Origin: a virus
Reading direction: 5' to 3' (one strand)
DNA: 64,000 bases
IMG/VR virus record: IMGVR_UViG_3300032053_000038
Span: 13,807-77,806 of that record
The position numbers were made by a program, and so were the translations under genes. Numbering within the stretch: the stretch's first letter is position 1; each line of letters begins with the position of its first letter. The notes under the pieces are model-generated. The model had not been told where the DNA came from. It ran no database searches and saw only the letters and a list, made by a program, of their open reading frames with translations. Of the stretch, positions 41,614 through 44,520 are shown piece by piece.

Positions 41614-44520
41614 CTACTTCCAGAACATTGCGATGTTGTCCAACACTGAGGTCAAACTTGGAAGCACGACCTTGTATCGCATCTGCGTCCCGCTCGCCTG
41701 TCCCGAGATATCGGTCAACTCGGAGTTGGGAACCTCGTAAAACGTCGCCCCGTTATCCCGGCTCGCAAACAGTTGAAGGTCTGGTGTCCCCTCCGCTACA
41801 ATGAACGCCTGCGCTGGCTCGACGGATGTAGTGTGAGCCTTGGATACGACATTGGCTGGTATGGCCGCGCTTTCCAGCGATATGGTCCCGACGTTATACA
41901 TCCAGAGGATTTCGGCAGGCGTTAGGACTCGGTCAAAGACCGCCACCTCGTCGAGTGTGCCCTTGGCCTGATTGGAACCGGGGTCCCATCCCATGATGGT
42001 GCTGAGCCCTGTCGATGGGACATAGGGTGTGGTCTCCTCGAACGTCCCGATGGACAGCCCATTCACGAAAAATTCGACATAAGAGGGCACTCCGTCGGAG
42101 TAGTGCTGAACGGCAGAGACATAGTAGAAGACCCCAGCTAGGAACAAATACGGCACATACTGGTCCGCAATCGGGTTTTTCAACAGAGATATCCCGTAAG
42201 CATTTATCTTGAAGCCGAGACCCACAGCCCCATCCTCCAACGAGGTGGTGAATATCGGGATGTCGTTGAGCGTGGCACCTCCCTTCGACGTATAACTGGT
42301 AGGTTTGACCCAGGCGCACACGCTGAACTCCTGTGTCTCGACGGATTTTAGCGTGGATCCGAGGTTGACCCAGTTGTCCTCTCCCCCAGGAAACTCCAAT
42401 GCGGTGCCCGCCAACCCGGGGACATACGGAATCGGGCTCGCCATTGAGCCGTCAAGACCGTTCCCCGAGCTATCCACAGCTGCCAGCCCCGAGCCCTCGT
42501 CGAACTTCCAGTAACCAGCCAGCCCGGACGGCTTCCCCTGGCTCACTACTAGTTTTTTCTCCCTAGAATACTGATACCCAGTAGATAGGGCGTCGTCCAT
42601 ATCACCCGCGTTGCTGAAAACGTCGATGAATCCTTTCTCCAACTCGTTGTTGCCGATATTCAGGAGCGTATCGACCTTGAAGTTGGTCTTGGCGAGATTG
42701 GTATTCATCTCACGGTCGAACTCTCCTCCACCAGTCGGAGCATTGACCCACTGAACCGTCCCTTCCGCATCTACAGCGGAAAGGACCTGACCCATTGTTG
42801 GTGCTGTGACGGTAGGAATCCTAACAGCGCCACTGATGACCACTTTTCCGTCGTGGACTCCTCCACTACTGGAACCACCTTGGATTACGACATCACCACC
42901 TATAAAGCTGACCGTAGTCTTGACATTGTGAACGAGGATGCCTGTGGCGAAGTAGGAATGTGTGTTCTTAACCTCGAAGTTGTAGGTGGGAATCTCCTCT
43001 ACCACCTTCGTGGAAGAGGCTAGGGTCTCCGTCTCACCCTTGTCATTCAGTAGCTCGTCCCCAACCTTGAGGACAGCGGCTTCCTTCCACACTCCCTTGG
43101 AGTGGAAGAGGTGGTTCGGGGTTACCTTTATCTCCCGGCCCCCACTTGTCTTGAGGAGAAGGTACTCGGGCGCTAACTCCTCGGAAGTGGTGTGGTGCTT
43201 GAGGGCCGTGACCTCCGAGGCCCGCAAGGTCTTGGTGCGATTATCATACGACTTCACCACATCGCCGACCTTGATGTCCTCAATTCCCTTGAAGGTTCCA
43301 TCCGCCATGGAGATTGGAGTACCGGCAGCGAAGCAGTAGTTGTGAACTAGAACACCAGCGAAATAGGCCTCCGTTCCCTTTACCTCGAAGCTGAAGGTGG
43401 AGATAGGAGACTTGATGAGCACGGACGCCGATACTGACTCCGAGGTTCCTGCCGGAGTGAGCAAAGCATCTCCCACGGATAGGGAGTGTGCTTCCTTCCA
43501 CGCACCGTTGACATAAAACAGATGTTCCGGAGTCACCTTCAGTTCGTTACCGGCGCTTGTCCTTAGTGAGATGTACTCCAGGGCGTTGTACTGGAATGTT
43601 CGTGTCACTTCAGAGTTGGTGTAGAGTCCGGTCACCACATCGAAGGACTTGATGAAATCCCCAGCCTTAACCTCCTCGATGGGCTTAGTTGAACCATCGG
43701 CCATGGAGACTGGGGTTCCGGCGGCGAAACAGTGAAGTGTGTAGTCGGCATCACCACCCACAAGTCGCAGCGTTCCTCCAGTGTATACCGCACTGATACT
43801 TTGCGGCTGTGCCCCCTTGATGTGTCCACCAGATATCGTGTTCTGCCCACCAGTTGCGGTCACTGTCCCCGCATCAAGACCAAGCGGACGAATCTGGATG
43901 GCACCGCCGGGATTCAGCGAGTCGATGAAGGTTGTTCCAGGAGATAGAAGGTCGTTGTAGACATTGGAGATTCCATCTCCACCCACTCCGACTTCCACCA
44001 AGTAATCCCTCACGGAGTTGTCAATCATCTCCGCCGTGACCTGTGTTGCGCCTGACGGGACAGTCACCTCGGCAACGAGGATCGCACCGGAGTCCGTCAC
44101 TGGAGCCTGTGCTTCCACCGTCAAGTCTCCCCTGTCAAAGTCCTTCCTCTCAAAACCGTCGGACCCGACTATGTGCTTCGGGCGAAGGACAATGTACTGC
44201 TTCCCAACCGCGACGGTCAGGTCAGCGAGTCTGTTCGGCTCGAACTGCTCCTTGTTCTTATCACTGAGGACAGTGCCATCAATCATGGCAACGTAGTCCC
44301 TGACGCGAATCTGTAGTCCGGTACCCGGAATCGTTTCACCGTTAAGATCCTTGATGTTGCGAACGACACCACCTACGACCATTGTCCCCTTGATGGGGAA
44401 AAAACCGTCACCCAACTGATTAAGTGCGAGTTGAAGCGAATCTGCTAGCTTAAAGTGGTCCGGAACGGTAACCACCTTAGCGGAACATGAAGTAATAGGA
44501 ATTTGAATTTTTTCTGCCAT
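41614..44520 (-). CDS. Fibre/adhesin with two tandem Hint (BIL-type) domains and a LamG domain
   Basis: Two CFAAGT..TPxH..LVHN domains; LamG motifs LAGYWKFDEGSG..DSSGNG and GTLDEVAVFDRVLTPAEI. Confidence 0.85.
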   Translation of the reverse strand: MAEKIQIPITSCSAKVVTVPDHFKLADSLQLALNQLGDGFFPIKGTMVVGGVVRNIKDLNGETIPGTGLQIRVRDYVAMIDGTVLSDKNKEQFEPNRLADLTVAVGKQYIVLRPKHIVGSDGFERKDFDRGDLTVEAQAPVTDSGAILVAEVTVPSGATQVTAEMIDNSVRDYLVEVGVGGDGISNVYNDLLSPGTTFIDSLNPGGAIQIRPLGLDAGTVTATGGQNTISGGHIKGAQPQSISAVYTGGTLRLVGGDADYTLHCFAAGTPVSMADGSTKPIEEVKAGDFIKSFDVVTGLYTNSEVTRTFQYNALEYISLRTSAGNELKVTPEHLFYVNGAWKEAHSLSVGDALLTPAGTSESVSASVLIKSPISTFSFEVKGTEAYFAGVLVHNYCFAAGTPISMADGTFKGIEDIKVGDVVKSYDNRTKTLRASEVTALKHHTTSEELAPEYLLLKTSGGREIKVTPNHLFHSKGVWKEAAVLKVGDELLNDKGETETLASSTKVVEEIPTYNFEVKNTHSYFATGILVHNVKTTVSFIGGDVVIQGGSSSGGVHDGKVVISGAVRIPTVTAPTMGQVLSAVDAEGTVQWVNAPTGGGEFDREMNTNLAKTNFKVDTLLNIGNNELEKGFIDVFSNAGDMDDALSTGYQYSREKKLVVSQGKPSGLAGYWKFDEGSGLAAVDSSGNGLDGSMASPIPYVPGLAGTALEFPGGEDNWVNLGSTLKSVETQEFSVCAWVKPTSYTSKGGATLNDIPIFTTSLEDGAVGLGFKINAYGISLLKNPIADQYVPYLFLAGVFYYVSAVQHYSDGVPSYVEFFVNGLSIGTFEETTPYVPSTGLSTIMGWDPGSNQAKGTLDEVAVFDRVLTPAEILWMYNVGTISLESAAIPANVVSKAHTTSVEPAQAFIVAEGTPDLQLFASRDNGATFYEVPNSELTDISGQASGTQMRYKVVLPSLTSVLDNIAMFWK
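42925..43335 (-). other. Hint domain 2 (137 aa, no endonuclease, +1 = Val)
   Basis: CFAAGTPI...VTPNHLF...TYNFEV..HSYFATGILVHN/V. Confidence 0.9.
43339..43731 (-). other. Hint domain 1 (131 aa, no endonuclease, +1 = Tyr)
   Basis: CFAAGTPV...VTPEHLF...TFSFEV..AYFAGVLVHN/Y. Confidence 0.9.

Follow-up and report, generated by a model that had tools for sequence, protein, structure and literature searches.

What becomes of a phage tail fibre whose neck is interrupted by two back-to-back Hint domains, neither of which is followed by the nucleophile that protein splicing normally uses? The question is raised by a gene in a 64,000-nucleotide stretch (the window) at positions 13,807 to 77,806 of IMGVR_UViG_3300032053_000038. 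This 77.8-kb IMG/VR virus record derives from an uncultured sediment phage, has a CheckV completeness estimate of 37%, and within the window the minus strand carries all large open reading frames (ORFs). One of these encodes P0001, a protein of 968 amino acids (aa) in which two Hint domains, Hint1 and Hint2, lie between an N-terminal anchor and a LamG head. Their cassette had been placed at 42925..43731, and the translation confirms that this interval is exactly Cys264 to Asn532. Hint domains of the bacterial intein-like (BIL) type have been studied in bacterial surface proteins, in toxins and in a ciliate ubiquitin-like locus, and their natural role is largely guessed. Here, we identify the cassette as an old pair of type-A BIL-like domains within the neck of a tail receptor-binding protein (RBP), and tentatively favour a scenario in which the pair excises itself and at least some of the flanks are rejoined.

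The Hint pair is real and far beyond chance. PT-HINT (PF07591) is the best Pfam family for P0001 and matches in two stretches (8.9e-29; 100.9 bits against a cut-off of 27.7), with 57.5 and 53.8 bits for the single copies, and the families Hint, Intein_splicing, Vint and Hint_2 also score above their cut-offs on this region. The best sequence relative in the PDB is the C. thermocellum BIL 2LWY (E-value 2.4e-11), followed by 8W20, a 1368-aa "intein C-terminal splicing domain" protein, and then by Tetrahymena BIL2. In an AlphaFold2 model of aa 234-562, both Hint domains have a predicted local distance difference test score (pLDDT) of ~90. By Foldseek, they match BILs, inteins and Hedgehog Hog domains with a probability of 1.0 and template modelling (TM) scores by target of 0.78-0.89, so that by fold both belong to the Hint superfamily. 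BIL2 (6Y75/6TMM) and 2LWY rank above every true intein and Hedgehog domain (TM 0.79-0.89); BIL2 is at rank 1 with an E-value of ~1e-10, and 2LWY matches with a TM of 0.89 and a root-mean-square deviation of 1.6. 2LWY, which we take to be a type-A BIL, stood proxy for the type-A sequence blocks of Amitai et al. 2003.

Type-A BILs are defined by a C-terminal His-Asn, the lack of a +1 nucleophile and their occurrence in variable regions of non-conserved proteins (PMC7664689, PMC4031507). Type B BILs are without the C-terminal His-Asn. Every part of the type-A definition that is readable from sequence is seen in both fibre Hints, in agreement with the original prediction. They share with type-A BILs the mini-Hint fold, Cys1, a TxxH block B (TPxH in both domains), the terminal His-Asn, the lack of Cys, Ser or Thr at +1 (here Tyr395 and Val533, the -1 residues being His263 and Tyr395) and a location in the variable part of a non-conserved surface protein. 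Moreover, with 131 aa in Hint1 and 137 aa in Hint2, neither has room for an endonuclease. The Mma BIL even has Tyr at +1, as Hint1 does. By contrast, P0001 is a phage virion protein with two copies and one spacer residue, the pair lies within a structural repeat and is followed by a functional C-flank of 436 aa, and its activity is predicted.

Three related classes fit less well. PT-HINT denotes a Hint just ahead of the toxin domain in polymorphic toxins (Zhang et al. 2012, PMC3482391). The likeness to PT-HINT is seen in the best Pfam family, in the longer relatives, which are mostly RHS or polymorphic-toxin proteins, and in the imported cassette with an orphan C-end, which gives the locus a polymorphic-toxin-like look. 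However, in Pfam the C-flank contains only Laminin_G_3 and is orthologous to RBP heads, so that a LamG receptor-binding head takes the place of the toxin domain; the next gene encodes a CxxCxxCC protein and no immunity gene is evident; and many of the RHS-toxin PT-HINTs among the longer-relative matches have Cys or Ser at +1. Canonical class-1 inteins have the same fold and blocks A, B and G and likewise interrupt their host protein in frame, but they have Cys, Ser or Thr at +1 and occupy conserved sites of conserved proteins, whereas the fibre Hints have Tyr and Val, lack an endonuclease and occupy a variable site for which no exact empty counterpart was found, the Hint-less alleles being without the whole neck. 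Hedgehog/Hog-type autoprocessing domains are C-terminal, have a region that recruits an adduct and do without Asn chemistry at the C-terminus, whereas the pair is internal, keeps HN and is followed by the 436-aa C-flank. Canonical inteins also occur in the same window: a 1337-aa portal protein (53710..57723, minus strand) has two with LAGLIDADG domains, of which one ends ...VLVHN/C and the other starts ...GEGPSF/C and ends ...ITGN/S.

Two observations support the idea that the neck module would be continuous without the Hints, the comparator, P0002, being a paralogue and not an empty-site allele. First, with the cassette removed in silico, the segments between the GG pairs have lengths of 17, 5, 15, 5, 15 (16 with the Tyr) and 5. 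Second, a single colinear local alignment, which runs through the junction, connects the joined flanks with aa 205-307 of P0002 (encoded at 45188..47158); its score is 125 compared to 58 +/- 9 in 300 shuffles (maximum 88; z ~7.7). The earlier suggestion that removing both Hints restores a repeat like that of this uninterrupted fibre thus holds. P0139, which consists of an anchor and a Gly-rich neck and is Hint-free, was considered as an empty-site allele and dropped because it aligns weakly to the joined flanks (79 compared to 52 +/- 8). LamG proteins, and no neck bearing Hints, were retrieved with aa 533-712 as the query.

The host protein was proposed to be a virion fibre with a LamG head. 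The Pfam match to Laminin_G_3 and the structural matches of the N-domain bear this out and refine it to a tail receptor-binding protein. An exhaustive HMMER search over 1.84 billion proteins placed the N-terminal 177 aa in a family with 43 cluster representatives, which share this domain at 35-60% identity and have variable C-terminal parts. The AlphaFold2 model of this domain (pLDDT 86) has 26 matches in BFVD at E<=1e-3, most of which carry the annotation "Receptor Binding Protein"; matches in the PDB are weak (TssK and the RBPs of lactococcal phages 1358/p2; E 0.07-0.6), and the structural neighbours in the Atlas are tail-fibre N-termini at a TM of ~0.55. The N-domain, thus, has the shoulder or anchor fold common to RBPs. 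Based on this modelled fold, P0001 is a shoulder-neck-head tail RBP although its gene follows the capsid gene. A reading as a head fibre, suggested by the position of the gene right after the capsid gene, was rejected in view of the RBP shoulder-like fold of the N-domain.

Hints are present in 1 of the 43 representatives of this family, i.e., in P0001, and what lies between anchor and head is freely variable. The orthologues P0004 (570 aa) and P0127 (568 aa) have the same anchor, "AKTNFK" segment, LamG domain and ..VFWK end, with a linker of ~20 aa in place of aa 178-604. A metagenome scan recovered four loci, of which L025 and L026 are from sister phages with capsid proteins 85-86% identical; their alleles, in the same gene slot, are Hint-less and encode 562-668 aa, and tblastn for Hints across the recovered sequence of both loci gave none. 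Of the alleles with zero, one or two Hints that had been anticipated, those with zero Hints are therefore present at the orthologous locus, where the Gly-rich neck is missing as well, and the homologue search gave no one-Hint allele and no neck with an empty site. When IMG/VR was scanned with the N-part and the C-part of P0001, no orthologue was found, and the C-part gave one distant LamG match only. An IMG/VR scan for CFAAGTP[IV] and [KN]G[VA]WKEA gave 19 loci, with no fibre among the nine distinct host ORFs checked, which as an exact-pattern scan is weak evidence of absence; these nine are terminases, a helicase or unassigned, and several have homing-endonuclease domains and Cys, Ser or Thr at +1. 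Against 50,697 deposited phages, tblastn gave only intein-like matches in helicases and terminases and, in addition, unannotated Ruminococcus phage proteins. In a search for longer relatives, RHS toxins, alpha-2-macroglobulin-like proteins and J-like fibres turned out to have a single Hint, and no closer relative of the neck-plus-Hint module was found. Finally, full-text literature searches returned no paper on Hint or BIL domains in phage fibres or on back-to-back Hints. Type-A BIL and PT-HINT domains are known, while the phage fibre host, the internal position and the tandem arrangement are new.

The two copies are old. They share 51% amino acid identity and ~57% of aligned nucleotide columns, with no long identical stretch; synonymous sites are saturated (proportion of synonymous differences, pS, 0.74), and the ratio of nonsynonymous to synonymous changes (dN/dS) is ~0.13. 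In a maximum-likelihood tree of 64 Hints, Hint1 and Hint2 are sisters (support 82/85). Together with the retention of Cys1, TxxH and HN despite this divergence, these values indicate long purifying selection on both copies. Moreover, GC content and GC at third codon positions (GC3) of the Hints equal those of the exteins, which argues that the Hints have resided in this allele for long and did not invade it recently. The pair is an old tandem duplication held under constraint in a GC-rich gene lineage, and neither a recent invasion nor an assembly repeat. Indeed, it is extremely improbable that an assembly error or chimera made the tandem. The sequence is a metagenome assembly, and run X1, which may be that of the source sample, is the only one to cover the junction between Hint1 and Hint2; however, an independent Logan contig of that run spans the whole gene, Logan contigs of other sediment runs bridge the outer junctions, i.e., N-extein/Hint1 in X3 and Hint2/C-extein in X4, and no joints or indels were seen in the contigs of the three runs. 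In addition, the reading frame is open throughout and, as noted in the original prediction, the copies are clearly divergent. Among the runs containing this DNA none was listed as RNA, a result that has no bearing on expression.

The same constraint bears on the possibility that nothing is processed and that the Hints are retained as six globular knobs per trimer, either as decayed mini-inteins or as latent domains that respond to redox, metal or pH. Retention would be tolerable, with the N- and C-ends of a Hint close together; Tyr and Val at +1 are non-nucleophilic, Hint1 is without the block-F histidine, and one such allele is known. However, loss of Cys1 or of the terminal Asn is the rule in inactive relics, while the residues for thioester formation and Asn cyclisation are all kept in both copies at ~50% divergence and low dN/dS. 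We, therefore, regard retention as improbable.

We suggest instead that the two domains of the cassette, which stems from the old duplication and lies within one repeat unit of a trimeric Gly-rich neck, are active in autoprocessing in the manner of type-A BILs (PT-HINT type), and that after translation the cassette would remove itself. The peptide bond preceding Cys264 (and Cys396) would be converted to a thioester by an N-S acyl shift, and Asn532 (and Asn394) would cyclise, cutting the chain behind them. Tyr395 and Val533 would be incapable of forming the usual branched intermediate; because they provide no +1 nucleophile, rejoining would have to go the BIL way, in which the freed alpha-amine of Val533 (or Tyr395) would attack the thioester at His263 while the folding trimeric neck holds the flanks in register. 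A useful fraction would be religated in this way to give a mature RBP of ~700 aa with an uninterrupted neck (...DADYTLH-[Y]-VKTTVSF...), and the remainder would be cleaved. This chemistry has a precedent in type-A BILs, which undergo minor splicing without a +1 nucleophile by aminolysis of the N-terminal thioester (PMC4031507). We infer Hint activity, excision and joining of the flanks, and regard splicing as possible rather than established.

Three arguments lead us to favour the reading that the cassette excises itself and that at least part of the chains are religated in the BIL manner, a reading to which we give somewhat less than an even chance. First, the 436-aa C-extein is an intact orthologue of the Hint-less heads, and the phage, therefore, presumably needs this head attached to the anchor. 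Second, the insertion respects the register of the repeat. Third, both copies are catalytically complete by motif. A self-processing module in a trimeric phage fibre is, by analogy only, reminiscent of S74 and other intramolecular chaperone domains of tailspikes and fibres that cleave themselves off; these differ in being of unrelated fold and chemistry, strictly C-terminal and released after trimerisation.

Several observations weigh against religation. In studied type-A BILs, cleavage products dominate over splicing (PMC4031507, PMC7664689), and the M. magnetotacticum BIL with Tyr at +1 did not splice until this residue was changed to Cys (PMC4031507). Many domains of the same Hint subfamily are at the extreme C-terminus and end in HNK or HNY directly before the stop, where only cleavage makes sense. 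The literature search gave no precedent for ligation across two tandem Hint domains. At the position of the block-F histidine, Hint1 has EAYF and Hint2 has HSYF, the histidine being lost from Hint1; speculatively, this difference could reflect a division of labour between the copies. The architecture is known from one sequence only, so that its conservation in context is unmeasurable. Finally, the AlphaFold2 model of aa 234-562 has a predicted TM score (pTM) of 0.54 and a pLDDT <50 in the flanks, and does not define the mutual orientation of Hint1 and Hint2 or the geometry of the four junctions.

Cleavage without ligation is accordingly close behind religation and nearly as likely, although doubtful in its own right. 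The chain would be cut between His263 and Cys264, between Asn532 and Val533 and at the inner junctions, and either the nicked neck would be held by hydrogen bonds between its rungs, with a built-in breaking point as the result, or the anchored stump would lose the LamG head, for instance once assembly is complete or in response to a trigger. BILs without a +1 nucleophile mainly cleave, as seen in vitro (PMC7664689, PMC4031507), PT-HINTs have been read as releasing peptidases in polymorphic toxins (PMC3482391), and among the relatives that are C-terminal caps there are double caps (P0007, P0010, P0011 and P0014). However, orthologues fuse the same head directly to the anchor without a cleavage module, which leaves a detached head without obvious use, and the cassette lies within a repeat unit and not at a domain boundary.

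The closeness to BIL2 of the Tetrahymena thermophila BUBL locus (6TMM/6Y75) raises a further outcome. BIL2, the top structural match, also acts without a standard +1 nucleophile; it attaches its N-flank to substrates and makes Lys-epsilon isopeptide bonds (PMC8616854). In the fibre, a lysine (Lys534, or one of a neighbouring chain, a virion protein or a host surface amine) could attack the thioester at His263 or Tyr395, giving an isopeptide-linked or cross-linked fibre. Lys is frequent at +1 in the Hint subfamily, and Lys534 is at +2 here. Nevertheless, the likeness to BIL2 amounts to 28% identity over one domain, BIL2 has ubiquitin-like flanks while the Hints of P0001 are flanked by fibre repeats, and no target is evident. 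Conjugation driven by a thioester is, thus, a long shot. More broadly, and about as improbable as retention of the Hints, the tandem pair could be a working chemical device of the virion rather than a passenger, either for nucleophile-free joining of the neck (by a Lys534 isopeptide or an inter-chain link) or as a latent thioester "fuse" that detaches or cross-links the LamG head on a trigger, which the co-imported, metal-binding CxxCxxCC protein might control.

Table 1. Features of the Hint-bearing fibre gene, its neighbours and the paralogous neck (coordinates in the window)
Feature	Coordinates	Strand	Details
Whole gene, receptor-binding tail fibre with Hint cassette	41614..44520	-	P0001, 968 aa; ORF list and translation; ~54.5% GC compared to 41% in the window
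N-terminal anchor ("shoulder") domain, aa 1-177	43990..44520	-	Family homology; AlphaFold2 and structural matches
N-flank of Gly-rich neck, aa 178-263	43732..43989	-	Ends ...GGTLRLVGGDADYTLH; His263 is -1 of Hint1; GG spacing; aligns to P0002 aa 205-252
Hint1, aa 264-394	43339..43731	-	Cys264, TPEH 330-333, His393-Asn394; CFAAGTPVS...VLVHN; EAYF at block-F histidine position
Tyr395, sole spacer	43336..43338	-	+1 of Hint1 and -1 of Hint2
Hint2, aa 396-532	42925..43335	-	Cys396, TPNH 467-470, block F HSYF, His531-Asn532; CFAAGTPIS...ILVHN
C-flank of neck, aa 533-604	42709..42924	-	Starts VKTTVSFIGGDVVIQGG (Val533 is +1, Lys534 is +2); ends in GQVLS..DAEGTVQW motif; aligns to P0002 aa 258-307, E 1.5e-6
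Conserved "AKTNFK..GF.DVF..D.D" segment, ~aa 605-665	42526..42708	-	Alignment with P0004/P0005 and family survey; in Hint-less orthologues after N-domain and ~20-aa linker
LamG (Laminin_G_3) head, aa 713-871	41908..42384	-	Pfam 2.4e-16
Conserved C-terminal domain, ~aa 880-968	41617..41883	-	Ends ..IAMFWK; kept in P0004, P0127 and orthologues in L024, L026, L027
92-aa CxxCxxCC (YkgJ-like) gene	41335..41613	-	Pfam PF03692 4.6e-11; GC 0.556; ATG abuts fibre stop
Orphan fragment resembling fibre C-end (..GTQMRLKVAI....SLFWKV)	41218..41334	-	In frame behind ykgJ stop; local alignments to C-ends of P0001, L026, L027
Uninterrupted neck counterpart, P0002 aa 205-307	46238..46546	-	Alignment to joined flanks of P0001

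The composition of the locus bears on the origin of the allele. A GC-rich block at ~41170..44430 on the minus strand comprises the fibre gene (54.5%), the CxxCxxCC gene (55.6%) and the 38-codon orphan C-end (53.8%) in a window of 41% GC, whereas the fibre genes of the sister phages are at the GC of their own genomes. In L025 and L026, the loci with readable downstream sequence, there is no ykgJ-like gene, the next gene behind the fibre gene being the orthologue of 40464..41105. Altogether, these findings argue that the Hint-bearing allele arrived by horizontal replacement.

In the sampled Hint subfamily, Lys and Tyr are common at +1, terminal caps are frequent, and in the tree of 64 Hints tandem duplications arose independently several times. 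Six metagenomic proteins of ~735-765 aa (P0007, P0010, P0011, P0014, P0008 and P0009) have a conserved N-part of ~460 aa that matches no Pfam family, followed by two tandem Hints and a single Lys before the stop (HNK); P0013 also has two Hints. P0003, a partial protein of 1628 aa from a metagenome-assembled genome of Thermoplasmatales, combines a subtilase (S8) with at least nine tandem Hints joined by linkers of 1-5 residues, mostly as HNT/..C. Single Hints of the same subfamily are found at aa ~20-170 of the metagenomic central tail fibre J-like proteins P0201, P0039 and P0247, between Gly/Lys-rich linkers (..KGG/C...HN/KGGGKGGG), and near the C-end of P0012, a metagenomic tape measure protein. 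A Hint of the same kind is present in P0173, a giant beta-helix/LamG protein, and P0169, P0171, P0172, P0175 and P0178, which are alpha-2-macroglobulin-like and of 1.8 kaa, have an internal Hint 40-48% identical to the fibre Hints and are among the closest relatives found. The pair in P0001 shares with the caps and arrays the CFAAGTP...LVHN subfamily and the recurrence of tandems with short linkers. By contrast, in the caps and arrays and in the J-like and tape measure proteins, Hints are at an end of the protein or close to its N-terminus, and the C-flank is small or missing. The distinguishing mark of the P0001 pair is its internal position with a large conserved C-flank, and for this reason joining would matter here.

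Other fibre genes lie nearby. A 200-aa protein (44531..45133, minus strand) and the 656-aa P0002 (45188..47158, minus strand) have an N-terminal segment in common, and the L025 and L026 orthologues of the 200-aa protein match P0002 aa 1-80 at ~39-41%. This anchor differs from that of the Hint-bearing fibre, which suggests that one particle may carry several fibre types. Coordinates 38253..39562 and 35658..38129 on the minus strand mark an 823-aa repeat tail fibre together with two genes directly upstream of it, one methyltransferase-like (phrog_8156) and the other unassigned (phrog_1574).

Together with the Hints in J-like and tape-measure proteins, the pair in P0001 suggests that phage tails make use of Hint domains in a way that we did not find described in the literature searched. 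The pair is a natural test of whether Hints without a +1 nucleophile splice, cut or stay in a virion fibre. It has a clear functional read-out, because the receptor-binding head must or must not stay joined to the baseplate anchor, and it comes with built-in controls in the form of Hint-less sister alleles and an uninterrupted paralogous neck. In addition, its two domains have one junction residue in common. If ligation takes place, P0001 would be a natural example of a structural protein spliced without a nucleophile, possibly in tandem, and possibly a tool for protein ligation. If an isopeptide bond through Lys534 or an inter-chain link is formed, this would be a new way to a covalently locked fibre, and if there is cleavage only, phage fibres would have a maturation or release step of a new kind.

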